Source: Hyphomicrobiales bacterium (lineage in GTDB: Bacteria > Pseudomonadota > Alphaproteobacteria > Rhizobiales > Beijerinckiaceae). From it: a stretch of DNA of 64,000 nt. The notes under the pieces are model-generated. The model was not told where the DNA came from. It saw only the letters and a program-made list of their open reading frames with translations, and searched no databases. The stretch is from contig JAFAHO010000060.1 of assembly GCA_019237205.1 (NCBI GenBank), positions 716-64,715 on the forward strand, read 5' to 3'. Both the position numbers and the translations under genes were made by a program. Positions 1-64,000 of this stretch are shown piece after piece; the first letter of the stretch is position 1, and each line of letters starts with the position of its first letter.

Positions 1-77
1 GTGAAACCCGCTCCCGGGATGGCCGAAACGGCGGAGACTGGATACATAAGTCTCTGATTAGAACGGTGGCGATCTCG

Positions 78-90
78 TAAGTTGTTGAAA
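78..90 (-). promoter_or_regulatory. Possible IHF site next to the att core
   Basis: Reverse complement TTTCAACAACTTA is 1 mismatch from WATCAANNNNTTR; a degenerate equivalent lies before att 2. Confidence 0.4.
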
Positions 91-94
91 CTGC

Positions 95-140
95 TGGCGC
101 GCCCGAAGAGATTCGAACTCCTGACCCCCAGATTCGTAGT
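95..140 (-). repeat. att site 1: 3' half of tRNA-Arg(ACG), from anticodon loop to CCA
   Basis: Reverse complement is ACTACGAATCTGGGGGTCAGGAGTTCGAATCTCTTCGGGCGCGCCA (anticodon loop, GTTCGA T-loop, CCA end); the 5' half of the tRNA is absent. Confidence 0.92.
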
Positions 141-283
141 TTGTCCATAGGTCTGTACCGAGACTTTCCGTTTGTACGCTGGACGCCTACGCCGTTGATT
201 TATCCTTTTGTTGTTTATTGTATTTCGGCCACTATAGCGCAGATTGGCGAACCAAGGCTTTCAAACTCGCGAGCCTGCAAACG

Positions 284-302
284 CCGTTCTAACACCGTTC
301 TA
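284..302 (+). repeat. Tandem CCGTTCTA motifs, putative integrase arm-type sites
   Basis: CCGTTCTA at 284 and 295 (11-bp period) just before the integrase ATG; same pair at 61774 and 61785. Confidence 0.65.
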
Positions 303-307
303 GCGTT

Positions 308-1010
308 ATGCCGCAATCCCGACTTTCGTTCTCGGATCGAGCGATCGGCGCTCTGCCGTTCGCCGCATCTGGCCAGCATATCGTCCGAGACGAGGACGTG
401 CCCGGCTTCTTTCTCCTCGTCGGCGCCCGCTCAAAGACCTTCATGATTCAGGGCGATCTTTGGGAACGGAAAGCGACGGACCATCCGCGTCAAGGTAGGG
501 AAGGTGGGCAAGATCGCGACGCGAGAGGCGCGAGCCAAAGCGAAGGTGCTTCTGGGGTCGATTTCCCGCGGCGCAGATCCGCGCCCTAAGCTGGAAGAGC
601 CAACGAGCCCCAGTGCGAATGGACCTGATCCGACCCTGAGGCAAGCGTGGGAGCGCTATCGCGATGGGCATATTTCCTGCGGACAGCAAGAGCGGACATT
701 TGGCGGAGCATAAGGAAAACCGCGATGAGCTCTCGAAATGGGCAATGACCTGAGGCAGACATTTCGAACAATTGCGCAAACCGCGGGTGTGCCGGAACTG
801 GATGTCCACCTGCTCATGAACCATTCAATTCCGGGAGTGAACGCAGGCTACATCACCCGCAGCACCCTGCTGCGCGACCATCTTCGAACTCAGCAGGAAG
901 CTGTCTCGCGAAAAATGATCGACGCCGTACGAGGCGCCAAACAGAACGAGGGTCAAGCGTCGGCTATTTGGATCGGCATGCCCAGCCGGAAGCTTGCGGC
1001 GAGCAGGTAA
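308..1010 (+). pseudogene. Tyrosine integrase pseudogene with N-terminal arm-binding domain
   Basis: Colinear with 61798..63081; 2-nt deletion near 466, ~579-bp internal deletion near 671, 1-nt deletion near 741; C-terminal DLRQTF, MNH and GYI motifs remain. Confidence 0.92.
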
Positions 1011-1499
1011 GCGCTCATAAATGCAATCCGCGCCTGCACACACCTCCGAGCCGACCTCAGGATTCCCATAAAGGAACCACTTCTCGTTGCCATGACCGCC
1101 CGGGAGTCGGCGAGGCGCAGTACACGTGATAGTCCTTCTCCCTAGAACCTGAGTTCCAGACAAGAGGCCGTGTGGAGCACAACCCACATCGGACGCTACG
1201 GCCGACCGTTGCTGACTTTGATCTGACCCTGCCGTTGTTGTTCAGAAGTCGACGAACTGGCTCCTGTCGTTCGTTGAAGAACGCGTGAATGCCGCTCTTA
1301 TCGTCGGCCGGCATGCTGGTACGGGGCAAGGCCGAACGCAAGGGCGGAGAGCGAAAGTTTGCAAAGTCCGATCATCGAAGTCCTCTCTACTAGGTTCGAG
1401 CAATATGCTCCGGGTTCGACCGGAGAGAGATAGATAGGCAGGACTTGGATCGCGAATTTCAGATGAATCGCCGGGCCGCTCGCCTAGACTTTTCCTTTT

Positions 1500-1680
1500 G
1501 ACCACTAAGCAAAAGCTTGCGCCGTCGGATGGGGAATCGTGCTGATGTCGATGGCGTAGTCTATCCGAGCGGCGGCGAAGCTTCGCGATGTTGTTCACGA
1601 TGGCCTCATTGGGTGTGCTGATGCGGGTGAAGATATGCCGGTAATAGCTGGCGTTCTCGGGGGTTTTGCCGAACTCGGTG
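1500..1680 (-). pseudogene. Unidentified frameshifted gene fragment
   Basis: Two minus frames join into protein-like text PANTEFGKTPENASYYRHIFTRISTPNEAIVNNIAKL / AAARIDYAIDISTIPHPTAQAF; family not recognised. Confidence 0.25.
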
Positions 1681-1726
1681 TTGGCCGGCTGCTTTGCCTA
1701 ATGCGGTTGCATCGACCTTCGTGATA

Positions 1727-1744
1727 TAGTACGCTACATTATTA
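1727..1744. promoter_or_regulatory. Operator motif A
   Basis: TAGTACG-CTAC-ATTATTA upstream of ABC operon 1; left half matches TMGTACG-NTAN-CGTACKA. Confidence 0.55.
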
Positions 1745-1883
1745 ATCGCCCGTTTGTGGGCGGAACGGAAAAACGTTTGAGGAGGCGCCCATTGTCGCCC
1801 GCGAAGAGGCCTCTGCAGCGGATCAATGTCCGCGCCGATAAGCGACGGCGCCGATCGGCCTTCCAATCACGCGCTCCGGCCTC

Positions 1884-2741
1884 ATGATCCCGCTTCTGAT
1901 CGCCAATTCTCTCGCCCTTGCGTCGCTCCTCATAATGATGTCGAGCGGTCTTGCGCTCATCTACGGCCTCAGGGACGTAATCAACTTCGGGCACGGCGCG
2001 CTTTATATGCTGGGCGCCTATCTCGGCTATTCGATCGCGCATGTCGCGGGATTTTGGGTCGCCCTCGTGGCGTCGCCGATCCTGCTCGCGCTGGTCGGAG
2101 CCGCGCTCGAAAATCTCGTGCTCCGCCCGCTGCAGCGACGATCCCACATTGAAGTCGCGCTGGTCACGTTGGGACTGGGAATTATCCTCGGCCAGGTTCT
2201 CATCTTTTTCTACGGTGGAGAAGCCCGCACTGTGGACGCGCCGCTCTCTTTGGCGGGTTCGGTCACTGCCTTTGGCCTGACCTATCCGATCTACCGCCTC
2301 TTCCTGATCGGCGTGGGTCTCAGCTCCTGTGCGCTGCTTGCGATTTGGCTGAATTTTTCGACCTCCGGCCTTCACGTTCGCGCGGTCAGCCAGGAACCGT
2401 CGGTCGCCCGCATGATGGGGATCGACGCGGACCGGCTAAGTCTTCTCGTGACTTCGCTGAGCGCCGCGCTCGCCGGCGTGGCGGGCGTCCTCGCCGGTCC
2501 CTACCTGTCCGTTGACCCAGGCATGGACGTCACGATGATCGTAAGCTGCCTTATCATTGTCGTGATCGGCGGAACGGGAAGTATCCCTGGAGCGATCGTC
2601 GCGGCGCTGCTCTACGGGTTCGTTCAGGTTGCAGGCTCCGTGTTCCTCCCCGACCTCGCCGCGCTCGCGCCCTATGCGCTGCTGATGGCCGTGCTCCTGG
2701 TCGCGCCGCGCGGGATCGGGCGCGGACGGGTGCTCGATTGA
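1884..2741 (+). CDS. livH: Liv/HAAT-family ABC permease
   Basis: GLALIYGLRDVINFGHGALYMLGAY; VVIGGTGSIPGA; multiple TM helices. Confidence 0.9.
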   Translation: MIPLLIANSLALASLLIMMSSGLALIYGLRDVINFGHGALYMLGAYLGYSIAHVAGFWVALVASPILLALVGAALENLVLRPLQRRSHIEVALVTLGLGIILGQVLIFFYGGEARTVDAPLSLAGSVTAFGLTYPIYRLFLIGVGLSSCALLAIWLNFSTSGLHVRAVSQEPSVARMMGIDADRLSLLVTSLSAALAGVAGVLAGPYLSVDPGMDVTMIVSCLIIVVIGGTGSIPGAIVAALLYGFVQVAGSVFLPDLAALAPYALLMAVLLVAPRGIGRGRVLD

Positions 2742-3781
2742 ACGGCCAGGCCGCAACTCGCGTAGCCTACCGACGCGGAGCCGCCCTGGTCCCGTCGGCA
2801 CGCGGGAGCCGGCGCATACTCGCCGGCGCTGCCGCGCTTCTTTTATTCACGATTGGCGCCTTTGCGCCTCAGTATCTGGCCAACGATTTCCTCCTGCGAT
2901 TGGCCGATGGGGGTCTCCTGCTTGGAATCCTCGCGCTGAGCATAGCTTTCCTCATGAGTCAGGCTGGGCTCGTCTCGCTCGGCGCAGCGAGCGTCTATGG
3001 CGGCGTCGGCTATCTCTTCGCGATCGCGATGAGCCAATGGTATCTTTCGCCGCTCGCCGCGATCGTCGCATCGATGGTCGTGGTGACCGTCTATGCGGCG
3101 ATCCTCGGCGCGCTCATCATCCGCACAACGCCGCTGGCCTTCATGATGCTTACGCTGGCGGCTGGGGAAATGATCAGCCACGCCGTGCTTCTTGAGGGCT
3201 TGAGAGACTATACGTCCGGCGCGGATGGTCTGGTCGTGAGTTTTGGCGGCACGCTGTTCGGCCTCGAGGCGGGGGACTTCGCCAATTCGGCAAGGTTCTG
3301 GCCCATCGTCTGGACGGCGGCGTGGGCCATCGGGAGCGCCGTCTGGGCGGTCCGCCGCTCGCGGCTCGGAGCAGTTCTCCGGGCTACGCGCCAGAACGAG
3401 GAGCGGATGCGGTTTTCCGGATTCGACACGTATGGTCCGCGCCTCGCCGCTTTCGTGCTCGCCAACGTTATCGCCGGCGCCTGCGGGCTTCTGCATGTCC
3501 TCAACTCTGGTTTCGTGTCGCCGGAGAGCCTGGGTCTGGGTCTCAGCACCAACGCCCTGGTCTCCGCGCTGATCGGCGGGACGGCCACGTCGGCCGGTCC
3601 GCTGCTCGGCGGAGTGATTTTCGCGTTTGCTCAGGACCAATTCGGCGCACACGGACTCACGCAGTTGCTCACGGGTCTCGCGATCGTGGTCTTCATCGTT
3701 CTCTTTCCAAGCGGCGTCGTGGGCGCATGGCGCGACTTCGCTCAATGGATCTGGCGCAACCGCAATCGGGAGGCCGGTTGA
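2738..3781 (+). CDS. livM: Liv/HAAT-family ABC permease
   Basis: AGLVSLG, FMMLTLAAGE, LRATRQNEERMRFSG; TTG start overlaps upstream stop. Confidence 0.88.
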   Translation: MNGQAATRVAYRRGAALVPSARGSRRILAGAAALLLFTIGAFAPQYLANDFLLRLADGGLLLGILALSIAFLMSQAGLVSLGAASVYGGVGYLFAIAMSQWYLSPLAAIVASMVVVTVYAAILGALIIRTTPLAFMMLTLAAGEMISHAVLLEGLRDYTSGADGLVVSFGGTLFGLEAGDFANSARFWPIVWTAAWAIGSAVWAVRRSRLGAVLRATRQNEERMRFSGFDTYGPRLAAFVLANVIAGACGLLHVLNSGFVSPESLGLGLSTNALVSALIGGTATSAGPLLGGVIFAFAQDQFGAHGLTQLLTGLAIVVFIVLFPSGVVGAWRDFAQWIWRNRNREAG

Positions 3782-4480
3782 ATGCTCGAGATCGACAAGC
3801 TCTCCGTCAGTTATGGGACAGTGCATGCATTGCAGGAGGTGGATCTCGAGATCGCCGGGGAGGGAGTGTTGCACGGCGTCATCGGGCCCAACGGCGCCGG
3901 AAAGTCCACCTTGCTCGACGCCGTTTCCGGCCGTCGCCGGCCGACCGCGGGCGCAATCCGCTATCGCGGCCAGGACATTACCCGCCGCTCGGTCGCGTGG
4001 CGACGGCGCCGCGGCATGGCGAGGTCGTTTCAGCGCACAAACATATTTCAGGATCTTACCGTCCGCGAGCAGCTCTCACTCGTCGCATGGCGCCTCGGCG
4101 ACGATCGGATCTCGGATGTCATCGAGGTCATGGATCTAGGCGACTATCTCGAAGAGAGAGCCGGACGAATCGCCTATGGCGTGCAACGTCGGGTCGATGT
4201 GGCGCTTGCGCTGATCGGCCGGCCGCAGCTCTTGCTTTTGGACGAACCTGGCGCCGGCCTTTCAGCCGAGGAAACGCTTCGCCTGTTTCAGCATGTCCGC
4301 GACCTGGTCGGCGAGCGCCGGATCGCGGCGGTCGTCGTCGAGCATGACGTAGACGCTGTCTTCGCCTGCTGCGGGGTTGTGACGGTGCTGGATCTGGGAC
4401 GGCATCTGGCGACCGGAGTCCCCGCGGAGATTCGCGCCGACCAGCGGGTCATAACGGCCTATCTCGGAAGCGCTGCATGA
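3782..4480 (+). CDS. livG: ABC ATP-binding subunit
   Basis: Walker A GPNGAGKST, ARSFQ, LLLLDEP, VEHD. Confidence 0.9.
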   Translation: MLEIDKLSVSYGTVHALQEVDLEIAGEGVLHGVIGPNGAGKSTLLDAVSGRRRPTAGAIRYRGQDITRRSVAWRRRRGMARSFQRTNIFQDLTVREQLSLVAWRLGDDRISDVIEVMDLGDYLEERAGRIAYGVQRRVDVALALIGRPQLLLLDEPGAGLSAEETLRLFQHVRDLVGERRIAAVVVEHDVDAVFACCGVVTVLDLGRHLATGVPAEIRADQRVITAYLGSAA

Positions 4481-5172
4481 GCGCGCTCAAGATGCAGGCG
4501 CTCTACGCCGGCTACGGCGCTTCGACTGTGCTCCATGGCGTCGATCTCGAAATCGGCAAGGGAGAGTCGGTAGCGATCGTCGGCCGGAATGGGGCCGGCA
4601 AGTCGACGCTCTTGATGTCGGTCTTTCGCGAAACGAATATCCTTTCCGGGGAAATATGGGTCGGCGGGGCGCGTATCGACGGGCTGCCCGGCTATTCCGC
4701 CGCAAAACTCGGCGTCGCCATCGCGCCGCAGGGACGGCGGATCCTGCCGAACCTCAGCATCCGGGAGAACCTCCTGCTTGGCGCGGCGACCCGCCGCCCG
4801 GGCCGGTGGAATCTGAGGACGGTGTTCGACCTCTTTCCCGCGCTCGAGCAGCGCGCCAATTCCGGCGGCATGATGCTGAGCGGCGGACAGCAACAGATGC
4901 TCGCCATCGGCCGGGCGCTGATGGCCAACCCCGACCTTCTCCTGCTCGACGAACCTTCGGAAGGACTGTCGCCGCTGCTGGTCGATGACCTTGTGCGCGC
5001 GCTCGACGAGATCCGGCGCGCGGGCACGGGGATCCTCGTGGTCGAACAGCATCTGAGCCTCGTGCGCCGCGCGACCGACCGGTTCGTGATCCTGTCGAAG
5101 GGCGAGGTGGTTGGCGCGGCGCCGACCGCGGAAATCGACGATCCGAGACACCAGACTTTGATGGCGCTTTAG
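4477..5172 (+). CDS. livF: ABC ATP-binding subunit
   Basis: GRNGAGKST, LSGGQQQMLAIGRALM, LLLLDEPSEGL. Confidence 0.92.
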   Translation: MSALKMQALYAGYGASTVLHGVDLEIGKGESVAIVGRNGAGKSTLLMSVFRETNILSGEIWVGGARIDGLPGYSAAKLGVAIAPQGRRILPNLSIRENLLLGAATRRPGRWNLRTVFDLFPALEQRANSGGMMLSGGQQQMLAIGRALMANPDLLLLDEPSEGLSPLLVDDLVRALDEIRRAGTGILVVEQHLSLVRRATDRFVILSKGEVVGAAPTAEIDDPRHQTLMAL

Positions 5173-5193
5173 CCAAATCGTGGGAGGAGAACG

Positions 5194-6396
5194 ATGAGAA
5201 TGACGACTAACCGTTGGCTGATGGGAGCCGCGACAGGCGCTGCGGCGCTGCTCGCCGCAAGCGCTGCGCTTGCGGAGGACACGATCAAGATCGGCGCGCT
5301 CCTGATCGACGCCGGGCCGCTGGCCGGCCTCAAGGAATCGCAGACCAAGGCGATCAATCTGGCGATCGAGCAGATCAACGCGGCGGGGGGCGCGGCGGGC
5401 AAGAAACTCGAGCCGGTCTTCATCACTTACGCCGGCACGCCCGACACCGCAGTCGATGGCGCGACGCGCGCGGTTCAGAAGGACGGCGCCCTCTTCCTCA
5501 CCGGTATGGATACGTCCGCCGTCTCGCCGGCCCTCTCGGCCAAGCTTGGCTCTTTGAACGCGTTGATGGTCGAAGTGTTCGCCCAGGCGGACCCGCTGAC
5601 CGGCAAGGGCTGCAACCCGAACTACTTCCGCGCCAACGTCAACGATTCGATGCTGATGAATGCGGTGGGAGACTTCCTCAAAGACAAGCCGATCAAGTCC
5701 TGGGACATCATTGCGGTCGATTATTCCTCCGGCCGGGACGCGGCGCAAAAGTTCCAGGCGCTGGTCAAGTCGCAGGGCGCAACCGTCGGAAAGTTGCTGT
5801 TTGCTCCCTCCGGAACGGCGGATTTCGGCGCCAAGATCTCGGAACTCGGCGCCAATCCGTCCGAGGGGCTCTATGTCACGATCTTCGGCAGCGACGCGAT
5901 CAATCTCGCCAAGCAGCAGGCGCAATTCGGGCTCTTCGCCAAATACAAGATGGTGATCGGCAATTCTTTCGTGATCCCGCAGGTCCTCCCAGCAATGGGC
6001 GATGCGGCGCTCGACGTCTATCAGACGCTCGGTTTCGTTCCCGGCGAGCCGGGAGCGCAAGCCGATGCTTTCGTGAAAGCGTACAAGGAACGATACAACG
6101 GAGAACAGCCCGCCTACACCTCCGCGGACCAATATGCGGCGATCCAGCTCATGGCCGCCGCCATCAACAAGGCGAATTCGACCGACGTCGCCGCCGTTCG
6201 CGCCGCGATGTCCGGCCTCACCGCCGACACGGTGCTCGGCCCGGCGGAAGTTCGTGCGGCCGACCATCAGACGGCGCGGCCGATCGTCATGAACCAGATC
6301 GTCAAGGGGCCGGACGGCAGGGCCGCGTATGAGATCAAGAAGGTTTTCACCGGCTCCGAAGTCATGGCCCCTGTGGATCCGGCATGCAAAATGTGA
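5194..6396 (+). CDS. Periplasmic substrate-binding protein, Leu/Ile/Val-binding fold
   Basis: Signal peptide ending ALA-EDTIKIG; AIEQINAAGG; DFGAKI; RAADHQ. Confidence 0.9.
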   Translation: MRMTTNRWLMGAATGAAALLAASAALAEDTIKIGALLIDAGPLAGLKESQTKAINLAIEQINAAGGAAGKKLEPVFITYAGTPDTAVDGATRAVQKDGALFLTGMDTSAVSPALSAKLGSLNALMVEVFAQADPLTGKGCNPNYFRANVNDSMLMNAVGDFLKDKPIKSWDIIAVDYSSGRDAAQKFQALVKSQGATVGKLLFAPSGTADFGAKISELGANPSEGLYVTIFGSDAINLAKQQAQFGLFAKYKMVIGNSFVIPQVLPAMGDAALDVYQTLGFVPGEPGAQADAFVKAYKERYNGEQPAYTSADQYAAIQLMAAAINKANSTDVAAVRAAMSGLTADTVLGPAEVRAADHQTARPIVMNQIVKGPDGRAAYEIKKVFTGSEVMAPVDPACKM

Positions 6397-6416
6397 GGCC
6401 GGTTCGCGCTTTCGGA

Positions 6417-6447
6417 CGCTGCGCCGCGCGTCGTGCGCGGCGCAGCG
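6417..6447. terminator. Perfect 13-bp GC hairpin between convergent genes
   Basis: CGCTGCGCCGCGC-GTCGT-GCGCGGCGCAGCG; no clear U-tract. Confidence 0.5.
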
Positions 6448-6461
6448 CCCGGGGCTCGCGT

Positions 6462-7481
6462 CTACACGACCAGCGAAACCTTGCCGAACCGGCCGCCGGT
6501 TTCGAACCTGTCGAACGCGGTCCGGATGTCGGACATGGCGAAGCGGGCGTCGATGACGGGCCTCACCAGCCCGCGGCTGAAGACGTCGAGAAGCCGGCGC
6601 AATTCGCCGACGCTCCCGCCCGTAGACCCGTAGATCTCGAGCTGACGGATAAACACGCGCTGCAAATCGGCCGGTGGATTGGAGCCGGTCGTCGCGCCGC
6701 AGGTCACGAGCCTCCCGCCCCGGCGCAGCGACTTGAGGGATTCTCCCCAGCTGGCGGCGCCGACGCTGTCGATCGCCATGTCGACGCCGCCTCCGCTCAT
6801 GTCGAGAATGGCCTTGGAGACCTTGTCCCTGCCGTAGTTCACGCCGCCTTCGGCTCCCATCGCGACGGCGCGCGCAATTTTCTCGTCGCTGGACGACGTG
6901 ACGAACACGCGGGCGCCGATGAGCTTCGCCAACTGGAGACAAGCAACGGCGACGCCGCCGCCGACGCCCACGATCAGCACGCTCTCCCCTGGCTGCAGCG
7001 CCCTCTTGCCGAAGAGCATTCGCCATGCGGTCAGGTGACCTGTCATCAGGGCCCCAGCCTCCTCGAGATCCGCGTCGTCGGGCAGGGGAAAGAAGCAGCG
7101 GGTCGGCATGGCGACATACTCGGCGAAGCCGCCATGCCGATGTTCGCCCATGATTTTCACGCTCTCGCACAGGGGCTGGTCCCCGGCGAGACAATAGCGG
7201 CATTTTCCGCAGAAGGCCTCGGAATAGATCAGGGCCTTCATGCCGGGCCGCAAGCCGCCGCCCGGCTCCGCTTCAGCGACAACGCCGGCGGCGTCGACGC
7301 CCATAACCTGCGGCAGCACGTGCGTGATCCCGGCGCCGTTGTCGCGCATGTAGAGATCGACGCGATTGAGCGAGCTGGCGATCACTCTGAGCACCGACTC
7401 GCCGGCCGCCGGCGTGGCATCGGGAAAATCACGCCAGTTCGCGCCCGCCGGGCCGCGCTCTTCAAGGACAACCGCTTTCAT
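6462..7481 (-). CDS. MDR-family alcohol dehydrogenase / quinone oxidoreductase-like protein
   Basis: SLNRVDL, GVDAAG, CGKCRYC...C structural Zn loop, GVGGGVA, TCGATTG, FGKV. Confidence 0.88.
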   Translation of the reverse strand: MKAVVLEERGPAGANWRDFPDATPAAGESVLRVIASSLNRVDLYMRDNGAGITHVLPQVMGVDAAGVVAEAEPGGGLRPGMKALIYSEAFCGKCRYCLAGDQPLCESVKIMGEHRHGGFAEYVAMPTRCFFPLPDDADLEEAGALMTGHLTAWRMLFGKRALQPGESVLIVGVGGGVAVACLQLAKLIGARVFVTSSSDEKIARAVAMGAEGGVNYGRDKVSKAILDMSGGGVDMAIDSVGAASWGESLKSLRRGGRLVTCGATTGSNPPADLQRVFIRQLEIYGSTGGSVGELRRLLDVFSRGLVRPVIDARFAMSDIRTAFDRFETGGRFGKVSLVV

Positions 7482-7545
7482 CGTCTCTCCATCGGCCCTC
7501 GGCGCAGGTATATATCCGGCGGCGCGATCCCTGAACGGACGATAT

Positions 7546-7563
7546 TAGTTCGTTAACGTACTG
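7546..7563. promoter_or_regulatory. Operator motif A in a divergent promoter
   Basis: TAGTTCG-TTAA-CGTACTG between 7481(-) and 7580(+). Confidence 0.65.
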
Positions 7564-7579
7564 TCGAGATCGGGGCGCC

Positions 7580-8647: not shown

Positions 8648-8657
8648 GGAGAGAAAG

Positions 8658-9797: not shown

Positions 9798-9936
9798 ACG
9801 CGCGCAGCCCGGGCCATCTTACCTCTGCGTGGCGGGCGGGACGCGAGTGAAAGATTTAAGCTCTCCGCCCCTATTCGACGTCGGTTTTGGCGAACGGACT
9901 CTTGCGAAGACGCTTCGTCTGGCCCAAATGTGCGAA

Positions 9937-9954: not shown

Positions 9955-9992
9955 TTTACTGGCGAGCCGCTTGGCTCCCGAACGAGACCAAC

Positions 9993-54474: not shown

Positions 54475-54503
54475 TTGCATTTCGTACGGTAACGTACTAT
54501 TGT
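54475..54503 (+). promoter_or_regulatory. Sigma70 promoter with operator motif A in the spacer
   Basis: TTGCAT-N17-TATTGT; TCGTACG-GTAA-CGTACTA at 54482..54499. Confidence 0.75.
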
Positions 54504-54537
54504 TCGGTCAATCCTTGGGAGGAGGCCGCACGGAGTC

Positions 54538-55335: not shown

Positions 55336-55388
55336 GAGTCCATGAAGCGCCTTGATATCGAAGTGACGTCCGAGAGTTGGGTGGGACA

Positions 55389-56297: not shown

Positions 56298-56367
56298 CCA
56301 GGACGATAGTTGTGGAGTGCAATTCTCGCCAGAACCGCGAATCCAGCGGTCCAAATAGGAGGGAACG

Positions 56368-58026
56368 TTGAGCGCAGCCAGGTTCTCCGTCTCGTACCAT
56401 CCGGCCGATCCCGGTCCGCCCCTCTGGGAGATGACCGTCGGCGATATGATGGAGAAGATTGCGACCGCATGGCCTGATCGTACGGCCCTGGTCGAGGGAG
56501 TTTCGGACCCATCGAAGCGGCGACGGTGGACCTTCCGTCAGTTGGTTGATCAATCGAAGTCGCTTGCGCGAGCTCTGCTGAAGCGGTTCGAGGTTGGCGA
56601 CAGGATTGGGCTGCTGGCCCCTGAAACGCCCGAGTGGATGCTTTTCCAGCATGCCTTGAGCTACGCTGGACTGATCATCGTGCCGGTCAATCCAACCTAT
56701 ACAGAGCGGGAACTCGAGTTCGTGTTGCAAAACTCTGGAGCCCGGGGCTTGGTCTTCGCCGAGGCGTCACGCAATAGAGCGCTCCGACCCGTGGTTGAGG
56801 CGATACGTCCGAAGCTGCCGGAATTGCGGGAGACGATCTCGCTCGATGAGATCGGAGATCTGCTTGCACAATCCGACCCGTCGGTCGCGTTACCTCAGCT
56901 TGATCCCAGAGCCACCATGCAAATTCAATACACATCCGGCACAACGGGCCAACCCAAAGGCGCCTGCCTACACCATATGGCGGTGGTCAACACCGCGCGA
57001 CAGATCGCCGATCGCGCTGACTTTCCAGAGGGCGGAGTCTGGATCAATGCGATGCCGATGTTTCATATCGGCGGGGGCATCGTCAGTCAGATCGGCACGT
57101 TCAGTCACGCCGGCACATTTGTGCTCATGCAAGCCTTCGAGCCCGGCCTTTTCCTTGAGCTAATCGAATCGGAGCAGTGTAACAATTCGCTGATCGTACC
57201 GACGATGATTCTCGCGCTGCTCAATCATCCCGACATGAAAACGCGCGACGTGTCGAGCTTCAAATCCATTCTTTCCGGAGCATCCAACGTACCCGCCGCT
57301 CTGGTCATGCGCGCCAAACAGGAATTCAACTGCAATTTCTGCATCATGTATGGCCAGACTGAGAGCAACGGTCCATTTCTCGAGACTTCGACGAGCGATC
57401 CGGTCGAACGGCAGACCGAGACGATCGGTCGCCCGACGCCCCACATTGAGGTGATGATCGCCAACATCGAGACCTCAAAGCCGCAGCCACTCAATACCGT
57501 AGGCGAAATCTGGGTTCGTGGCTTCCTCACGATGTCCGGCTATTACGGGATGCCGGAGGCGAGCGCCGCTGCGCTCACAAGCGAAGGCTGGCTGAGGACT
57601 GGCGACCTCGGCAGGATGGATGAGGACGGTTACTTTAAGATCACCGGTCGACTGAAGGAGATGATCATCCGCGGGGGCATGAACCTCTATCCCAAGGAAA
57701 TCGAGGACGTCATCTTCCAGCACCCGAAAGTCGGGCAGATCGCGGTTGTCGGGTTGCCAGACGAGAGCTGGGGCGAAATCGTCGCTGCTGTGGTGCAGCC
57801 AAAGGCGTCGGAGACAATTACGGCAGACGAACTCTACGCCTACTGCCGGAAATACCTGTCGCCGCAGAAGACGCCGGAGCGCTGGTTCTTCGTCGATCAC
57901 TATCCGATGACCGCGACCGGGAAGATCCAAAAGAACAAATTGACCACTTCGATCCAGGAGGGCGAGATTCTTGCCGTGGATTGGCGAAAGCCGTCCGGAT
58001 CCGGCGCCCGCGCCACCTCGCTGTGA
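56368..58026 (+). CDS. Acyl-CoA synthetase (AMP-binding, FadD-like)
   Basis: YTSGTTGQPKG, YGQTE, LRTGDLG, GRLKEMIIRGG, GKIQK; TTG start. Confidence 0.92.
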   Translation: MSAARFSVSYHPADPGPPLWEMTVGDMMEKIATAWPDRTALVEGVSDPSKRRRWTFRQLVDQSKSLARALLKRFEVGDRIGLLAPETPEWMLFQHALSYAGLIIVPVNPTYTERELEFVLQNSGARGLVFAEASRNRALRPVVEAIRPKLPELRETISLDEIGDLLAQSDPSVALPQLDPRATMQIQYTSGTTGQPKGACLHHMAVVNTARQIADRADFPEGGVWINAMPMFHIGGGIVSQIGTFSHAGTFVLMQAFEPGLFLELIESEQCNNSLIVPTMILALLNHPDMKTRDVSSFKSILSGASNVPAALVMRAKQEFNCNFCIMYGQTESNGPFLETSTSDPVERQTETIGRPTPHIEVMIANIETSKPQPLNTVGEIWVRGFLTMSGYYGMPEASAAALTSEGWLRTGDLGRMDEDGYFKITGRLKEMIIRGGMNLYPKEIEDVIFQHPKVGQIAVVGLPDESWGEIVAAVVQPKASETITADELYAYCRKYLSPQKTPERWFFVDHYPMTATGKIQKNKLTTSIQEGEILAVDWRKPSGSGARATSL

Positions 58027-58817
58027 AGGTCGACGCCGGAGTTGCGAGGACACGACCGGTCGCGCTTGTGACGGGCGCGGGCGGAGGACTTGGCGCGGCA
58101 ATCGCCGTCGCACTTGCGAAGTCGGGTTTCGACCTGGCGCTGAATGATCTTGCTGAAAGCGAATCCCTTCGCAACGTTGTCGCGCGCGCTTCAGATCGCG
58201 GCGCCCGAGCCCAAATCTTCGCGCGCGATCTCGCGCAGATCGAAGAACTACCGAACTTCGTTGGATCTGTATGCGATGACTTCGGAGAGGTGGACTGTCT
58301 TGTCAACAACGCGGGCGTGTCAGTTCTCTCGCGCGGGGACATTCTGGATGTCGCCCCTACCAGCTTCGACCGCTGCATCGGCGTCAATCTGCGCGCCCAG
58401 TTCTTCTTGACGCAAGCGATGGCTCGCAGAATGGCCGCGCAAGCGGCCAACGGCCGACGGCGTTCGATCATCACGGTCACCAGCGTCGCCGTGGACGAGA
58501 TAGTCGGCGCCGCGCTCGCGGAATACAGCATCTCAAAGGCCGGTCTGTCGCACATGATCAAGCATTTCGCCGTGAGGCTCGCCCCGCTTGGCGTCGAGTG
58601 CTACGAACTGCGCCCTGGAATGATGAAAACCAACATGACGGGTTCTTCACGGAAGAAATACGACGACCTTATCGCTTCGGGATTCGTGGCGGCGAATCGC
58701 TGGGGGGAAGTCGACGAGATCGCCGAAACGGCGGCCAGTCTTGCGAGCGGCGCCCTTCGCTACACCGTTGGCCAGATCGTAAACGTCGACGGCGGGATGT
58801 GGCTCAAGACCTTCTGA
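58023..58817 (+). CDS. Classical SDR oxidoreductase
   Basis: TGAGGGLG, NNAG, YSISK; GTG start overlaps the ligase stop. Confidence 0.85.
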   Translation: MKVDAGVARTRPVALVTGAGGGLGAAIAVALAKSGFDLALNDLAESESLRNVVARASDRGARAQIFARDLAQIEELPNFVGSVCDDFGEVDCLVNNAGVSVLSRGDILDVAPTSFDRCIGVNLRAQFFLTQAMARRMAAQAANGRRRSIITVTSVAVDEIVGAALAEYSISKAGLSHMIKHFAVRLAPLGVECYELRPGMMKTNMTGSSRKKYDDLIASGFVAANRWGEVDEIAETAASLASGALRYTVGQIVNVDGGMWLKTF

Positions 58818-58902
58818 ACACGCGCGCCGAATCTAGTTGCAGCTCTCGATGGTGCCATTTGAAGAGACGACGTTTCGCGCCTTCACGTGCGGCGCGGCTC
58901 CT

Positions 58903-59859
58903 TCAGATGTGAGCGTGGATTCTTTGCCAAATGTCGCCGACAGGACGCGGCTCGACGGCGGTCGCGAGAGCGGCTTGCGTTCCCTTGCATCCGGGAACAC
59001 AGGACGCCTGGCTTAGAGTCATCTGACGATCTAGCGGTTCGTCATCCTCGATCGACGCGTCTTGCCTCCTGCATTCAGCTAGATAATCGTCGAGCCCGAT
59101 CAAGGCGGCGCCCAACGCCCCCGCGATCTGGGGCGCGGCCGGCAGAATGACCGGCATGCCGATCGCTTTCTCAATGTAGTGTACCGCCGCTCTGTTGCGC
59201 GCGACGCCGCCGGTCATGACCACGGGCCCCTGCTGTCCGACCCGGGCGACCAGGCCCGCGGTCCTGGTCGCGATCGCCGCATGGACCGCCCCCAATACGT
59301 CGGGCTTTGTCCGCCCCTCGGCCAGAAGCGAGATGACTTCGGTTTCAGCGAAGGTCGCGCACATGCTCGAGATTCGCAGTTCGTGGCGCGCGTCAAGCGC
59401 GGTCTCGCCCATAAGGTCGAGGTCGATCGACAACGCGCGCGCAAGCACCTCAAGGAATTTTCCGGTGCCGGCGGCGCAACGGTCGTTCATCGCAAATTGG
59501 GTCACAAGCCCCTTCGCGTCGACCGCTATGGTCTTGCTGTCCTGACCGCCTATATCGATGATCAGCCGGGCCTCCGGGACCATTGCGACGGCGCCTCGCG
59601 CGTGGCAGGTGATTTCGGTATAATTCTTGTCAGCCATGTCGAGCATGCGCCGACCGTAGCCGGTGCTCACGGTGCGCCCCATGTCGTTCTGGCTGAGGCG
59701 CGCCTCTTGTAGCGCGCCCTCGACTGAGGCCTTCACGCCTTCACCGCTGACCGCGCCCATATGGGCGACGCAAGATGCGACCATCTCGCTTTTCAGGTTC
59801 AGAATTACCGTCTTAGCGGTCGTCGAACCGAAGTCAATTCCCATTACATAGGACTTCAT
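58903..59859 (-). CDS. ASKHA-family [4Fe-4S] activase (HgdC / BzdQ-like) with C-terminal extension
   Basis: GIDFGSTTAK, STGYGR, TEITCH, DIGGQDSK, MNDRCAAGTG, SSMCATFAE, GGVARN, AGALGAAL. Confidence 0.92.
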   Translation of the reverse strand: MKSYVMGIDFGSTTAKTVILNLKSEMVASCVAHMGAVSGEGVKASVEGALQEARLSQNDMGRTVSTGYGRRMLDMADKNYTEITCHARGAVAMVPEARLIIDIGGQDSKTIAVDAKGLVTQFAMNDRCAAGTGKFLEVLARALSIDLDLMGETALDARHELRISSMCATFAETEVISLLAEGRTKPDVLGAVHAAIATRTAGLVARVGQQGPVVMTGGVARNRAAVHYIEKAIGMPVILPAAPQIAGALGAALIGLDDYLAECRRQDASIEDDEPLDRQMTLSQASCVPGCKGTQAALATAVEPRPVGDIWQRIHAHI

Positions 59860-59898
59860 GGCGCGGTCCTCTGTCCCGGAATAGGAGCGCAAGAATAG

Positions 59899-59939
59899 GT
59901 GAGTTGGACTTACTAACGACAAAAGACGGCGAATGTCAA
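59899..59939 (-). promoter_or_regulatory. Activase promoter with operator motif B
   Basis: GTGAGTTGGACTTACTA at 59899..59915 (15/17 to the 51526 site); minus-strand TTGACA at 59939..59934. Confidence 0.72.
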
Positions 59940-60010
59940 GGTACGCGAGCCACGGCGAGCGCCCTGAATGGCCAGCGGGTCGCGGCGACTCTGCCGATGG
60001 CGAGCCTGCC

Positions 60011-60757
60011 TCACTTCAAATTCTGGGTCGATGCAAGCTCCTGGCGCAATTCTGCGACTCCCGCGCTGAGTTTTCCGATCGACTCCTGCAATTGTGAAGC
60101 CACGTCCACGAGGGTGGCGACAGACCCTGATCTGGGCCGCTGACCCAGGCCGTTCGTAATCACGTCGGCAATGGCCGAAGCCGAGTCATCGACGGAAAAG
60201 TCTCCCTCGCCCCTCAAATAAGCCCATGTCTGGTGTTCGATGGCGCCGAAGATCATGTCGCGGATGACTTTTGGTGGAACGTCTCCCCTGAGTTCGCCGC
60301 GGCGGATCCCCTCGGCCACCACATCCGTCACCATGGCCGCAAATCTACGGTTCTGCTCGTAGGATTTCATTTTGCGGAAGTCCGGATCCGGTCGCAGCTC
60401 CAATAGGACAAACCGGGTAAGGGCGGGCTCCTTCTTTATCCCCCACAGGTTTCTCCAGATGACCCTGAAAAGTCTCTCTCGAATCGGCTCATCCGGGTTC
60501 GAAGGCGGGTCTTCGGTGAGAAACTCCTCAAACCAGTCCTCGGCTACACGCTGAAGCAATTCGCGTTTCGTGCTGAAGTACTTGTAGATCGTGCCTTCCG
60601 AGACCCCACACCGCTGCGCCACTTCAGAGGTCAGAAACTGTTCCGATCCGCGCTCGCGCAACACGACCCGGGCGGTCTGCAAAATAGAAGCAATGCGATG
60701 GTCTTTCGGAAGCCGTTTCGCTGACGGGCGGGAAAGCGGGGGGAGTGGCCGTTCCAT
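60011..60757 (-). CDS. TetR-family regulator
   Basis: ILQTAR, EVAQRCGVSEGTIYKYFSTKRELL HTH. Confidence 0.92.
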   Translation of the reverse strand: MERPLPPLSRPSAKRLPKDHRIASILQTARVVLRERGSEQFLTSEVAQRCGVSEGTIYKYFSTKRELLQRVAEDWFEEFLTEDPPSNPDEPIRERLFRVIWRNLWGIKKEPALTRFVLLELRPDPDFRKMKSYEQNRRFAAMVTDVVAEGIRRGELRGDVPPKVIRDMIFGAIEHQTWAYLRGEGDFSVDDSASAIADVITNGLGQRPRSGSVATLVDVASQLQESIGKLSAGVAELRQELASTQNLK

Positions 60758-60889
60758 ATTGTTATATTTCAGCACCAGATTGTGGCATTACACCTATCCT
60801 TATCGTCTGTAGCAGAACGATCAAAACTGCCGTGCGCTTTTGTTCTCGAGTTTGTTCCTTCGGTGCTATCCTAACTGGTGCGCTGGCTG

Positions 60890-61228
60890 ATGGAAGTTAG
60901 CACGGGTCGTGCCGAACATTTGCCCTTTGGCGCGTCCTGTTCCCTTGGTCGGCACCCCTCCTGCGACGAAGGCGTTTACAGGCGCCGGTCGGGGCGCGTA
61001 GCCGGGATAGCCCTCGGGATGCTAACCGAGCGCGGGCCGACGTTCGCCGTCGAGACGTTCTGGCGCCACGAATTACTTCAACTTCCAAGTGCCGAGCAGC
61101 GGATCATCGCCGAGCGACATCCTGGCAGTCCCGACTAACGCCAGCACACAGATCGCCACGATAGCGAGCCGCGCGAATCTCGTTGCGAGGTGGGTTGAGC
61201 CGCCATGGCCGTGATAGTTCCAGCTCAT
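60890..61228 (-). pseudogene. Secreted lipocalin-like protein pseudogene
   Basis: Signal peptide, then DDPLLGTWKLK*FV...GERRPALG*HPEGYPGYA; two in-frame stops and a later frameshift; GGGAGG RBS; left boundary approximate. Confidence 0.6.
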
Positions 61229-61523
61229 CCGCGCCCTCCCGTATCGCTTGCACGTATCCATCGCTCAACGCCAATTGATACCCTTCGGAGCAGACTGCGG
61301 TCCGACGGCTTTCCTACTGACGCCGGTGTGCCGTCATTCATTTAGGAAGGGATACCGCCAGCCTAGAAACTGTATAAAAACGGGTGACGTCACTCAGGCA
61401 ACCTGCCCGATTTGGACGAGCCGGACTGCTGAGGTAATGGCAGTTGCCACGGGCTTGGCTACGGAGTGATCTATGTTAACCGAGGGCAACAGACCTAAGG
61501 AGGCACTAACGAGCAGCGAGCAA

Positions 61524-61558
61524 CCGCCGTTCTAAATAAGATCTCTCTAGAACGGTGG
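61524..61558. repeat. Inverted arm-type motifs at the island's right end
   Basis: CCGCCGTTCTA (61524..61534) and TAGAACGGTGG (61548..61558); the latter also at 59..69. Confidence 0.6.
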
Positions 61559-61584
61559 GCGCTAGCCTAATATCCTGAAATTGC

Positions 61585-61630
61585 TGGCGCGCCCGAAGAG
61601 ATTCGAACTCCTGACCCCCAGATTCGCAGT
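61585..61630 (-). repeat. att site 2: 3' half of tRNA-Arg with an anticodon-loop substitution
   Basis: 45/46 identical to 95..140; C61627 versus T137. Confidence 0.92.
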
Positions 61631-61773
61631 TTGTCTGCTGGGCCGTACCGAGGCTTTCCATTTGTGCGCTTGGACCCCTAAGTTGTCGATCACACCTTTG
61701 TGTTTTATTGTGTTTTGGCTACTTTAGCGTAGGATAGCAAACTGCGGCTCTCAAACTCGTGAGCCTGCAACCG

Positions 61774-61792
61774 CCGTTCTAACACCGTTCTA
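61774..61792 (+). repeat. Tandem CCGTTCTA arm-type motifs
   Basis: Same motif and spacing as 284..302. Confidence 0.65.
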
Positions 61793-61797
61793 ACGTC

Positions 61798-63081
61798 ATG
61801 CTGCACTCCCGACTTTCCTTCTCTGATCGAGCGATCGGCGCTTTGCCGTTCGCTGCATCTGGCCAGCATATCGTGCGAGATAAGGATATGGCGGGCTTTT
61901 TTCTCCTCGTCGGTACCCGTTCCAAGACCTTCATGATCCAGGGCGATCTTTGGGAGAATGGAAAGCGACGGACCATCCGGGTGAAAGTCGGGGAGGTGGG
62001 CAGAATTGCAACCCGAGAGGCGCGAGCGAAAGCGAAGGTGCTCCTCGGGTCAATTGCCAACGGCGTCGATCCGCGGCCTAAGCCGGAGGAGCCATTGAGC
62101 CCTACTCCGAACGGGCCCGACCCCACCTTAAGGCAGGCGTGGGAGCGCTACCGGGATGGGCATATGAAGCGGAAAGGGAGAAGCGGCGGCACGATCGAGA
62201 ATTATAGGGACCATGTCGAACGGCTGATGTCAGATTGGCTCGATATTCCCCTATCCAAGCTTGGGCTCCAGCCGGACTTGGTGAGAGCTCGGCACGAAAA
62301 GCTCAGTCAAGAGAACGGAAACTATATTGCAAACGGCTGCATGCGAACGCTGCGCGCGATCTACAATCACGCTCGCAAAGCAGCGAGGGGCCTTCCTCCG
62401 GACGACCCCGTCTCAGCGGTTGATTGGAATTTGGAACGCCGGCGAGACACAGCCCTTGGGCTCGCCGATCTCAAGGGTTGGTTCAATGAATTGGCGGCGC
62501 TCGAAAACCCGGTGCGGCGAGAATTTCATCTTTTCCTCCTGCTCTCGGGCCATCGCCCGGAGGCGATCAAGGAGTCGCGCAGGGAGGACCTGGATTTTCG
62601 CCGACGCTTCCTGCACGTGCCGAAGCCGAAAGGTGGAGAGGCGAGAGCATTCGACATTCCGCGGTCGGCCCATGATTCGCTGCCTGGTCCGCGTTCTGCG
62701 CTTTGGGCAGTTGCTCTATCCTTACCAATCAGCGGAATGGGCATTTCCAGCTGATAGCGAGAGCGGACATTTGGCGGAGCACAAGGAGAAGCGTGGTGAG
62801 CTGTCAAAGTGGGGCAACGACCTGAGGCAGACGTTTCGGACGATTGCGCAGACCGCCGGTGTGCCAGAACTGGATGTCCACCTGCTGATGAACCATTCAA
62901 TTCCGGGAGTGAACGCAGGCTACATCACCCGCAACAAGCTGCTGCGCGACCATCTTCGAATTCAGCAGGAGGCGATCTCGCGAAAAATGATCGCGCGGCA
63001 CGAGGCGCCAACCAGGACGAGCCGCAAGCGACGGCTCTTTGGATTGACATGCCCGCGCGGAGGCTTGTCGCGAGCATGTAA
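61798..63081 (+). pseudogene. Near-full-length tyrosine integrase with two frameshifts
   Basis: Arm-binding N-terminus, SGHRPE, PKPKGG, NDLRQTF, MNHS, AGYI; frame changes at ~62660..62671 and ~62993. Confidence 0.85.
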
Positions 63082-63274
63082 GCTGGTCTCCATCGGAGCG
63101 CGCTGAGCTAACTTTGGCTGACTACTGACGCTTCGCGGGGCGGACGTGGCTCGTTGCAAGGCGCTTCTTGAGCGCGCTCAAAAAATTGTCTCAAAGTCCG
63201 CCAACCTTGCTCAGACGGTTGCCTGATTCGGTTGGTCGCCCGCAATTGTCCATCGCGCATAGAGCTGGGGGAAC

Positions 63275-64000
63275 ATGCTCGACCAACGAAAAAACGACGA
63301 TTTCTCAAGACCCGGTCGATCATCGCCGATCGTGCTTCAGCATCTTCGATATGCGGTGTCGGCAGCGGAGCACGGCAGCTTTCGGCGCGCCGCCGAGGCG
63401 ATGCTGCTTCAACAGTCGACGCTCAGCCGCTGCGTTCGGCAGCTCGAGGAATCGATTGGCCTGATTGTTTTCGATCGGTTCAGCGGCGGCGTCCGGCCGA
63501 CGCAGGCGGGCCAAGAGTTTCTGCGAAACGCTCGATCGATCCTGGAGCAGGTGGAGGCGCTGGCAGCGACTGCGCACAGGACGGGCCGCGGCGAAGCCGG
63601 GCGCTTAGGGATCGGCTTTTACACCTCGTTGTCCGCCGGGAACCTTCGCGCGACGCTGACGGAAGTCGCGCAGCGCTTCCCGCAACTGGAGATCGAGCTC
63701 GTCGAGAGTTCACGGAAACGGCTCGCCACGGCGCTTCGCAATGGCGCCGTCGACATCGTGATCGTCCCTGGCGATGCGCCGCTACCGGAGAACACAGTGA
63801 TGGCGCTCTGGAGCGAACGGCTTTTCGCCGCCATTCCCGAAAGTCATCCGTTCGTCGGGAGGCAGGCTGTCCACTGGATCGACCTCAAGGACGAGACAGT
63901 GCTGCTCAGCCGACGCGATCCCGGACCGGAGCTTCATGATCTCTTGATTGCAAGGACGGCATCGCCCGGTGACCGGCCGAAGATCGTGCGCCACGATGTC
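63275..64000 (+). CDS. LysR-family regulator, 3' end beyond the window
   Basis: Own translation from ATG 63275: LQHLRYAVSAAEHGSFRRAAE...QSTLSRCVRQLEESIG...GRLGIG; frame open to 64000. Confidence 0.9.
   Translation, partial: MLDQRKNDDFSRPGRSSPIVLQHLRYAVSAAEHGSFRRAAEAMLLQQSTLSRCVRQLEESIGLIVFDRFSGGVRPTQAGQEFLRNARSILEQVEALAATAHRTGRGEAGRLGIGFYTSLSAGNLRATLTEVAQRFPQLEIELVESSRKRLATALRNGAVDIVIVPGDAPLPENTVMALWSERLFAAIPESHPFVGRQAVHWIDLKDETVLLSRRDPGPELHDLLIARTASPGDRPKIVRHDV

Follow-up and report, generated by a model that had tools for sequence, protein, structure and literature searches.

IntS of ICEMlSymR7A is a P4-family (DUF4102 / Arm-DNA-bind_3) tyrosine integrase at tRNA-Phe, and in islands and ICEs of this family the integrase combines an arm-binding domain at its N-terminus with a tyrosine-recombinase fold, the target is the 3′ portion of a tRNA gene that is duplicated and restored by the element, and arm-type sites recur on either side of the core. 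The locus reported here, a window of 64,000 nucleotides (the whole stretch of DNA that was analysed), shares these traits; however, its target is tRNA-Arg(ACG), its integrase sits at the end far from the intact tRNA, its catalytic domain falls below the PF00589 cut-off with N341 in place of the first His, and, unlike in P4-family ICEs, the islands seen here are without conjugation genes. Lambda integrase (PDB 1z1b and 1z1g, the best structural matches) resembles the predicted model of the present integrase in its three domains, and in lambda, too, short repeated sites lie in both arms (P and P′) at a distance from the core. Unlike in lambda, the sites here are of the aaCRCCGTTCTAa type; two direct copies adjoin the start codon of the integrase, and P′ holds an inverted pair. 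No Xis- or AlpA-like small ORF was found near either island end.

Stacking of related elements at one att site, with internal att copies between them and older members that lost functions, is described for ICESt1/CIME of Streptococcus thermophilus, where tandem accretion proceeds by site-specific recombination (Pavlovic 2004 and Bellanger 2011, as cited in bioRxiv 10.64898/2026.01.13.699239), and for the island arrays at asn-tDNA of Klebsiella (PMC4891358). The present locus resembles both in these respects, but it belongs to an uncultured Rhizobiales (Beijerinckiaceae-like) host, carries catabolic cargo, and all of its array integrases are pseudogenes, so that mobilisation in cis is impossible without a helper. 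We propose, with good confidence, that the window holds an array of integrase-only islands that entered one tRNA-Arg(ACG) gene by successive site-specific integrations (Table 1). As such it is a frozen and fairly ordinary example of a well-known process, and the concepts of island formation are unchanged by it.

Table 1. Features of the 64,000-nt window, from left to right.
Feature	Coordinates	Strand	Remarks
Likely scar of an older element (E0)	43..94	-	Trailer-like sequence and proximal P′-type arm half
att1	95..140	-	46-nt 3′ part of tRNA-Arg(ACG), anticodon loop to CCA; not an intact tRNA
Leader 1 (P arm)	141..307	+	167 bp; two direct arm-type sites, 284-291 and 295-302
int1 pseudogene, heavily decayed	308..1010	+	tblastn against the intact 428-aa homologue of G054
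Spacer	1011..1883		Non-coding, lower GC, no Pfam-recognisable ORF, unmatched in relatives
Cargo part A	1884..45532		GC ~65%; Pfam searches
Cargo part B	45536..61522		GC ~59%; Pfam searches
Complete P′ arm, element 1	61523..61584	-	Inverted pair plus trailer-like sequence
att2	61585..61630	-	Second copy of the tRNA-Arg 3′ part, 42 nt exact; internal array junction
Leader 2 (P arm, element 2)	61631..61797	+	Arm sites 61774-61781 and 61785-61792
int2 pseudogene	61798..63081	+	All 428 residues represented; two frameshifts
LysR-family regulator	63275..64000	+	Pfam HTH_1 and LysR_substrate; first visible cargo gene of element 2

Direct repeats derived from the 3′ part of a tRNA gene bound element 1. 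The 42-nt core TGGCGCGCCCGAAGAGATTCGAACTCCTGACCCCCAGATTCG is exact at both 95-136 and 61585-61626, and the two 46-mer copies match at 45 of 46 positions, att2 having GCG at the anticodon position. Read on the minus strand, the 46-mer is the stretch of positions 32-77 in the tRNA-Arg(ACG) found intact in relatives, to which att1 is 100% identical; ARAGORN called no tRNA at att1, and the whole 64-kb window gave zero tRNA predictions. An earlier note had reported that att, a 167-bp leader and a homologous integrase occur twice, 61,490 bp apart, as sibling modules at tRNA-Arg(ACG); the first point is confirmed by the repeat itself and by the 61,490-bp spacing of repeat families D1 and D4, and the second is supported. 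The two copies of leader plus integrase share 82-92% identity. With flanks ~84% identical, a core of 42/42 exact positions has an expectation of 0.84^42, ~7e-4, and an exact core amid diverged flanks is what would be expected if the core were reset from the tRNA at each integration.

Neither integrase gene is intact, which the earlier note had missed. The frame of int1 is shifted near 460 and again near 741, and 192 codons are deleted internally (residues 124-315). In int2, 90% identical to the integrase of the relative G054, the two frameshifts are a 2-bp deletion near 62665 and, near 62993, a 1-bp change. The window thus holds no intact translatable integrase gene, and no intact integrase of the array's family was found assembly-wide. 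A shared or programmed frameshift was rejected because the indel sites differ among int2 and the copies in G077 and G079. The frameshifts could in principle be assembly errors, but the neighbouring ORFs examined are long open frames with Pfam matches, which weighs against this. As both integrases are pseudogenes and the assembly has no intact family copy, the array is a fossil, now immobile cargo.

Judged from its sequence, the integrase appears to be a P4-type (Arm-DNA-bind_3) tyrosine recombinase. The N-terminal Arm-DNA-bind_3 domain (PF13356) was detected at E = 2.2e-9 (37.7 bits, cut-off 27), and the HAI7 arm-domain structure (3ju0) matches the integrase model with a TM of 0.69. The intact homologue P0003 scored 14 bits (E = 0.045) for PF00589, with a cut-off of 27.1, and PF00589 is present in homologues at 64-68% identity, the range in which the DUF4102 integrases of Mesorhizobium are found. 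The homologues number >1600 and include Mesorhizobium proteins annotated as DUF4102 plus PF00589, while neither NCBIfam nor PDB returned a match to the integrase when searched by sequence. Among 32 homologues, R253, K278, R344 and Y376 are invariant and H367 nearly so, and N341 is an invariant Asn where the HxxR box usually has His. The AlphaFold model (pLDDT 80) had its best matches with full-length lambda integrase, the Tn1549 integrase, Xer recombinases and the HAI7 arm-binding domain, those with lambda integrase, Tn1549 integrase and XerA/D/H having a probability of 1.0. The catalytic residues of a tyrosine recombinase in the 32 homologues and its fold in the predicted model were therefore both recovered.

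The arm-type sites give the att regions a recognisable architecture. A 12-nt motif with the consensus aaCRCCGTTCTAa was derived from 42 instances and would be the site that the integrase binds. Its 8-mer CCGTTCTA/TAGAACGG has 7 copies in the window, every one of them within 250 bp of a core, while 89 copies in the 5.46-Mb assembly give an expectation of ~1 per 64 kb; in a scan of the whole assembly, clusters of at least two copies were found in att regions only. The direct pair in leader 1 stands immediately before the integrase start codon, and the P′ arm of element 1 carries the inverted pair CCGCCGTTCTA-N13-TAGAACGGTGG at 61524-61558 and is homologous to the P′ arms in G054, G024 and G077. 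Rfam gave no match in either att region, and scanning the att2 region for promoters and terminators was likewise negative.

The complete single element in G077 (contig C7) fixes the layout of the family: a tRNA fragment at 26,046 is followed by leader and integrase, and 60.6 kb further by a P′ arm with three motifs and the intact tRNA-Arg(ACG) at 86,648-86,724 on the minus strand, i.e., flank, fragment, leader, integrase, ~60 kb of cargo, P′ arm, intact tRNA. On this layout int2 was rightly assigned to the next element in the earlier note, and the intact tRNA would lie to the right of element 2. The order at 61523-61800, P′ arm, core, leader and int2, is that of an internal junction, which is a signature of tandem accretion and upholds the claim of a tandem array; such junctions also occur in G054 and G078. 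Separately, the idea that the G054 module lies on a circular contig, as an attP, was rejected, as there is no terminal overlap.

Based on these findings, the array probably formed as follows, the order of arrival and the crossover position being what we infer. The attP would contain the final 46 nt of the tRNA, and the crossover would fall in the anticodon loop. On one side the 167-bp leader would form the P arm, its two direct aaCRCCGTTCTAa sites lying right up against the start codon of the integrase, and on the other side a P′ arm of ~62 nt would carry the inverted pair. Integration would leave a tRNA fragment beside the leader and integrase at the far end and rebuild an intact tRNA beside the P′ arm, and a later sibling using the rebuilt tRNA would create the internal junction at 61523-61800. 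Element 1, with the wrecked integrase, would be the older one and span 95-61584 (61.5 kb); element 2, with the twice frameshifted integrase, would start at 61585; and a still older element or remnant, half of whose P′ arm survives, probably ends at 94.

Two other origins of the paired modules were weighed against the tandem array. One is that the contig is an assembly or binning chimera, in which the single islands of two populations were joined through the shared 46-nt core. The bin is fragmented and has many near-duplicate segments of 85-98% identity that end at contig ends, the pair of C376 and the left end of C429 among them, which speaks for a chimera; yet the exact repeat is merely 42-46 nt between divergent flanks. 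The usual metagenome assemblers finish with k-mers longer than 42-46 nt, so a join through the core is disfavoured, and the same P′-core-leader-integrase junction recurs in assemblies that are independent of this one, among them that of G078, where it lies on a 5.97-Mb contig, leaving a chimera very unlikely. In-place segmental duplication instead of two integrations would also leave same-orientation direct repeats flanking 61.5 kb. However, int1 with its leader is 89-91% identical to the modules of G077, G079 and G080 and 82% to int2; because int1 is closer to foreign modules than to its neighbour, the two modules are independent acquisitions and not a local duplication. A perfect core between flanks of ~84% identity, and left sides that differ (a full P′ arm at att2, half an arm at att1), likewise speak against duplication, which we regard as extremely improbable.

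How many elements the tandem array holds is a separate question, and we lean towards a third, older element or remnant ending at position 94. TAGAACGGTGG is present on the left of both cores, 36 nt from the first (59-69) and 37 nt from the second (61548-61558); positions 43-94 agree with the right end of element 1 (61533-61584) in 39 of 54 aligned columns; and since every motif copy in the window lies near a core, the copy left of att1 would be element-derived, which makes a third element likely. The rival reading is that only two elements exist, that the DNA left of att1 is the true attB flank and that TAGAACGGTGG there is a chance occurrence or an unrelated relic. It agrees with the proximal half-site standing alone and with the P′ arm similarity ending 52 nt from the core. 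It also agrees with the 6.4 kb of the paralogous contig C376, where no integrase or other mobility gene is visible and only an aromatic-catabolism cluster and a LysR regulator are seen. The sequence TAA-N5-TGAAA-N-TGC, at 78-94 and 61568-61584, which the earlier note had taken as an element mark, does not serve as one, being the trailer that the tRNA naturally has in most relatives within the genus, element or not, and its likeness at the two sites is equally accounted for by two elements.

Against the two-element reading, the probability that an exact 11-mer would fall by chance at the same offset, to within 1 nt, is ~1e-6, and this site has no counterpart beside the tRNA in six genus relatives lacking a P′ arm there (G012, G018, G013, G016, G006 and G022), being otherwise confined to P and P′ arms. 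The LysR/aromatic cluster left of att1, moreover, never adjoins tRNA-Arg in the ~10 of 60 relatives that have it. We therefore regard two elements as possible but unlikely; the earlier claim of a third element keeps its arm-type site and its cluster context, but what can be seen of the P′ arm is half only. Window positions 43-94 share 92% identity with C376:6388-6439, and this similarity of the att1 left flank runs through the C376 core (6440-6485) and ends just past it at 6489, beyond which C376 has the leader of another integrase subfamily (G075 type).

The array is seen only from inside, as the assembly contains neither the body of element 2 nor either of the outer chromosomal flanks. The intact tRNA-Arg(ACG) is in none of the 459 contigs, the contig of the window ending 192 bp beyond it (at 64192), and a search of the assembly with the tRNA 5′ half matched other Arg tRNAs only. 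The cell presumably needs this gene, and the array accounts for both the assembly break here and the absence of tRNA-Arg(ACG) from the bin. No overlaps of the ends of C429 and C376 with other contigs were found. The bin (G000) has 3.6% contamination and 74 near-duplicate segment pairs, because of which two related populations may be mixed in it. Across the genus the context of tRNA-Arg is not conserved, and the right chromosomal flank was not located by synteny: in G022 the tRNA is 610 bp upstream of rpsL, a linkage seen in no other relative fetched, and in G000 rpsL is unassembled, contig C305 ending within rpsG. Two candidate flanks were set aside, C14, which matches the upstream flanks of two relatives without containing the tRNA, and that of C315 (a 20-nt att remnant with a wrecked integrase), which is not beside tRNA-Arg in relatives.

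The cargo of element 1 is catabolic only. No gene for VirB4, a coupling protein or a relaxase was found by Pfam among its ~58 ORFs, and no VirB4 (PF03135) in G000, G077, G078 or G079, so that element 1 lacks the conjugation machinery of its own that defines an ICE. The spacer after int1 is probably decayed element backbone. Part A encodes a LIV-type ABC transporter, acyl-CoA dehydrogenases, hydratases, SDRs, a CoA ligase and transferases, a thiolase, BKACE, an APH kinase and a MarR regulator, and part B a second LIV ABC transporter, an ACAD, two HGD-D subunits, SDRs, a CoA ligase, a BcrAD/BadFG activase and a TetR regulator. Distribution is patchy, as expected of a tRNA-integrated island, with the integrase family in 5 of 60 genus relatives and part A in G022 at a chromosomal site that has no att and is empty in G000.

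From this locus, a widespread Rhizobiales integrase subfamily gains an att site and an arm-site motif that had not been described before, and studies of the cargo pathways gain clear island boundaries. It also marks tRNA-Arg(ACG) as a recurrent hotspot at which an uncultured soil lineage stacks large catabolic gene sets (beta-oxidation, alicyclic and aromatic CoA pathways). A further, quite doubtful idea is that integrase-only islands capture large chromosomal catabolic blocks and stack them at tRNA-Arg(ACG) as a slow, giant cassette platform, decayed members being excised or shuffled in trans by the integrase of a new sibling through the shared aaCRCCGTTCTAa sites. Part A (~44 kb) occupies an att-less chromosomal site in relatives; its collinear counterparts, at 74-83%, are G022:C3:148-199 kb and those of four more relatives, and the matching site in G000 is without it. 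Part B is absent from all five relatives that carry part A.

The junction at the right end of element 1, where a full P′ arm (the ~62-nt element end), the att core, the leader and the second integrase gene, int2, follow one another, has the order expected of a tandem array, in which a second element would integrate into the tRNA rebuilt by the first and leave a P′-core-leader-integrase junction. Thus, element 1 spans 95-61584 and int2 opens element 2, in agreement with the earlier note, which had assigned int2 to the next element. Next to each copy of the core come a 167-bp leader and then an integrase gene homologous to its counterpart; these repeat families lie 61,490 bp apart with 82-92% identity. 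The 42-nt core is identical in both copies, acquires a single mismatch when extended to 46 nt, and, in reverse complement, equals positions 32-77 (anticodon loop through CCA) of the intact tRNA-Arg(ACG) in genus relatives; ARAGORN detected no tRNA anywhere in the window. The exact match at 42 of 42 positions, against ~84% identity in the flanks (0.84^42, ~7e-4), fits a core that is reset from the tRNA at every integration. Additionally, the leader and N-terminal integrase DNA of the first gene, int1, are 89-91% identical to the modules of three relatives (G077, G079 and G080) but only 82% to int2, and the two att-integrase modules are not a local duplication.

Coordinates of the att-associated features and cargo (window positions unless a contig of the assembly under study, G000, is named)
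Feature	Location	Description
Arm site left of att1	59-69	TAGAACGGTGG, at the canonical offset
att1 core	95-136	TGGCGCGCCCGAAGAGATTCGAACTCCTGACCCCCAGATTCG (42 nt)
att2 core	61585-61626	TGGCGCGCCCGAAGAGATTCGAACTCCTGACCCCCAGATTCG (42 nt)
Element junction	61523-61800	P′ arm, core, leader, int2
Inverted motif pair	61524-61558	CCGCCGTTCTA-N13-TAGAACGGTGG, 27-61 nt past the tRNA 3′ end, opposite side from the integrase
Third full 46-nt att copy	G000:C376:6440-6616 (L043)	Then 135 bp matching the G075-type leader; contig ends before the gene
Fourth relic	G000:C315:800-1228 (L044)	20 nt of att core (TGGCGCGCCCGAAGAGATTC) joined straight to codon ~136 of a multiply deleted integrase
Cargo families	Element 1	Two LIV-type ABC transporters, many acyl-CoA dehydrogenases, enoyl-CoA hydratases, SDRs; CoA ligases and transferases, thiolase, BKACE, APH kinase; two HGD-D subunits with BcrAD/BadFG activase, MarR and TetR regulators
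Two HGD-D (2-hydroxyacyl-CoA dehydratase/benzoyl-CoA reductase-like) subunit genes and single BcrAD/BadFG-type activase	51585-54125 and 58903-59922	Lower-GC part
Stretch with truncated alpha/beta-hydrolase ORF	32063-33001	~940 bp

The layout of the family can be read from a relative. Contig C7 of G077 holds a complete single element, in which a motif-less flank is followed by a tRNA fragment at 26,046, the leader and the integrase, and, after 60.6 kb, by a P′ arm bearing three copies of the motif and, on the minus strand at 86,648-86,724, the intact tRNA-Arg(ACG); therefore, the P′ arm borders the intact tRNA, and the integrase occupies the distant end of the element. P′-type motifs directly after the intact tRNA also occur in G003, G004, G017 and G007 and are absent there in six genus relatives (G012, G018, G013, G016, G006 and G022). 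Internal P′-core-leader-integrase junctions are present in G054 and on a 5.97-Mb contig of G078 as well, so stacking at the tRNA-Arg(ACG) site recurs. Tandem accretion is a well-documented process at att sites and tRNA hotspots (bioRxiv 10.64898/2026.01.13.699239, citing Pavlovic 2004 and Bellanger 2011; PMC4891358), and the array of the window is of the same kind. What is new here is that an att site and an arm motif are defined for an integrase subfamily widespread in Rhizobiales, but the array is dead and lies within a fragmented MAG. Separately, a lone tRNA-Arg fragment with a complete P′ arm occurs in G024 (G024:C5:534580-534700, L029), 2.2 kb from a tRNA-Asn gene, where no family integrase was found nearby and the intact tRNA-Arg(ACG) is 262 kb off; this locus resembles an orphaned att scar.

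In the window, the 8-mer CCGTTCTA or its complement is present seven times, each within 250 bp of a core, and it occurs 89 times across the 5.46-Mb assembly, for ~1 expected per 64 kb; beyond the att regions, no cluster of at least two copies was found elsewhere in G000. From 42 instances in family att regions (the window and 14 related loci), the consensus aaCRCCGTTCTAa was derived. In all family members examined, the start codon of the integrase is immediately preceded by two copies in direct orientation, spaced 11 bp apart, and an inverted pair lies in the P′ arm. Judged from sequence, these copies are best read as putative arm-type sites for the Arm domain of the integrase.

Because neither window copy is intact, the integrase was analyzed through the intact 428-aa homolog of G054, which is 90% identical to int2. 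This protein carries a P4-type Arm-DNA-bind_3 domain (E = 2e-9); its catalytic domain is too divergent for the PF00589 profile (14 bits), and searches of NCBIfam and PDB sequences with the integrase gave no match; its more than 1600 homologs include Mesorhizobium proteins that are annotated as DUF4102/tyrosine recombinases and match PF00589. In an alignment of 32 homologs, R253, K278, R344 and Y376 are invariant and H367 nearly so, and the first catalytic His position is occupied by an invariant Asn (N341). The closest structural matches of the AlphaFold model (pLDDT 80) are full-length lambda integrase, the Tn1549 integrase, Xer recombinases and the HAI7 integrase's arm-binding domain. Together, the domain, the conserved residues and the model matches mark the protein as a tyrosine integrase of three domains, one of which is arm-binding.

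Both window genes appear to be pseudogenes: int2 retains all 428 residues with two frame changes (near 62665, where 2 bp are deleted, and near 62993, where the change is of 1 bp), and int1 is frameshifted near both 460 and 741, with residues 124-315 missing. That int1 has decayed further is consistent with element 1 having arrived before element 2, provided that newcomers use the intact tRNA. No intact integrase of the family was found in the whole G000 assembly; a relic on contig C315 is decayed even more than int1 and int2, with no P′ motif on its other flank, and may represent either the array's outermost and oldest junction or a locus of its own. A 104-bp stretch of the same contig (G000:C315:1853-1956), 99% identical to C388:16827-16930, may be a small dispersed repeat. 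The integrases of G077 (L037) and G079 (L039) carry single-base frameshifts at differing sites, one in a C run, which may be long-read errors and not real decay.

A third element, ending at 94, had been proposed from motifs shared to the left of both cores. These motifs are indeed present, and 39 of 54 columns match when positions 43-94 are aligned with 61533-61584, with no similarity further left; however, TAA-N5-TGAAA-N-TGC proved to be the natural tRNA trailer (GCAnTTTCAAnnnnCTTA in the tRNA sense), found in most genus relatives with or without an element, and is uninformative. What speaks for the third element is the arm site at its canonical offset, within ~52 nt recognizable as P′-like, and against it the distal half-site of the P′ arm is missing. 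Further left lies a LysR gene, which on contig C376 (92% identical) closes an aromatic-catabolism cluster of an MFS transporter, FAD monooxygenase, Rieske protein, dioxygenase and hydrolase. The flank left of 95 is not conserved core chromosome, because this cluster occurs in ~10 of 60 relatives and adjoins tRNA-Arg in none of them. On this evidence, a remnant of a third, older element left of att1 is moderately probable.

The identity of C376 to the left flank of C429, the window's contig, ends just past the core, where a leader of another integrase subfamily (G075-type, 84-87% identical) begins; the G075-type integrase is ~67% identical to int2 and was not found in the G000 bin. C376 could be either a further junction of the array within G000 or part of a sister population in the bin, with a different element at the same boundary. 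G000 contains 74 pairs of near-duplicate segments (at least 500 bp, 85-98% identity, ~72 kb in total, many at contig ends), which suggest a mixture of two related populations and leave both sources plausible. Under either reading, att1 is a real recombination boundary.

The G000 bin (5.46 Mb, 459 contigs, 91% complete, 3.6% contamination) includes C429 at 64,907 bp, of which the window (716-64715) leaves 715 bp on the left and 192 bp on the right, and the loci homologous to the window come from MAGs labeled uncultured Alphaproteobacteria and Beijerinckiaceae. Among the 45 tRNAs of the 459 contigs, tRNA-Arg(ACG) was not found; since the cell presumably needs it, an assembly gap is most likely, plausibly caused by the array's own repeats. 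The intact tRNA-Arg(ACG) of G022 is located 610 bp upstream of rpsL-rpsG-fusA-tuf (G022:C3:38570-39440, L062), a linkage found in no other relative examined, and in G000 rpsL is unassembled and contig C305 stops inside rpsG; by analogy, the array might abut the S12 operon in G000.

Among ~58 ORFs scanned, every recognizable one is metabolic or regulatory, and a TetR regulator adjoins the BcrAD/BadFG-type activase. Searches for a relaxase, a coupling protein, VirB4 and Xis-like genes gave no match, and the elements are integrase-only islands, not ICEs. The region 1.9-45.5 kb (GC ~65%) is collinear, at 74-83%, with blocks in G022, G017, G067, G011 and G018, and the region 45.5-61.5 kb (GC ~59%) is not shared with them, which marks element 1 as a mosaic, most of whose cargo is found in relatives as ordinary chromosomal DNA. 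In G022, the block adjoins ETF-QO and is only a few genes away from yidC; att and motif are absent nearby, and the equivalent site in G000 (C298) is without the block. The stretch with the truncated hydrolase ORF is missing from the otherwise collinear blocks of all five relatives, which makes it either an insertion local to G000 or the remnant of a gene there.
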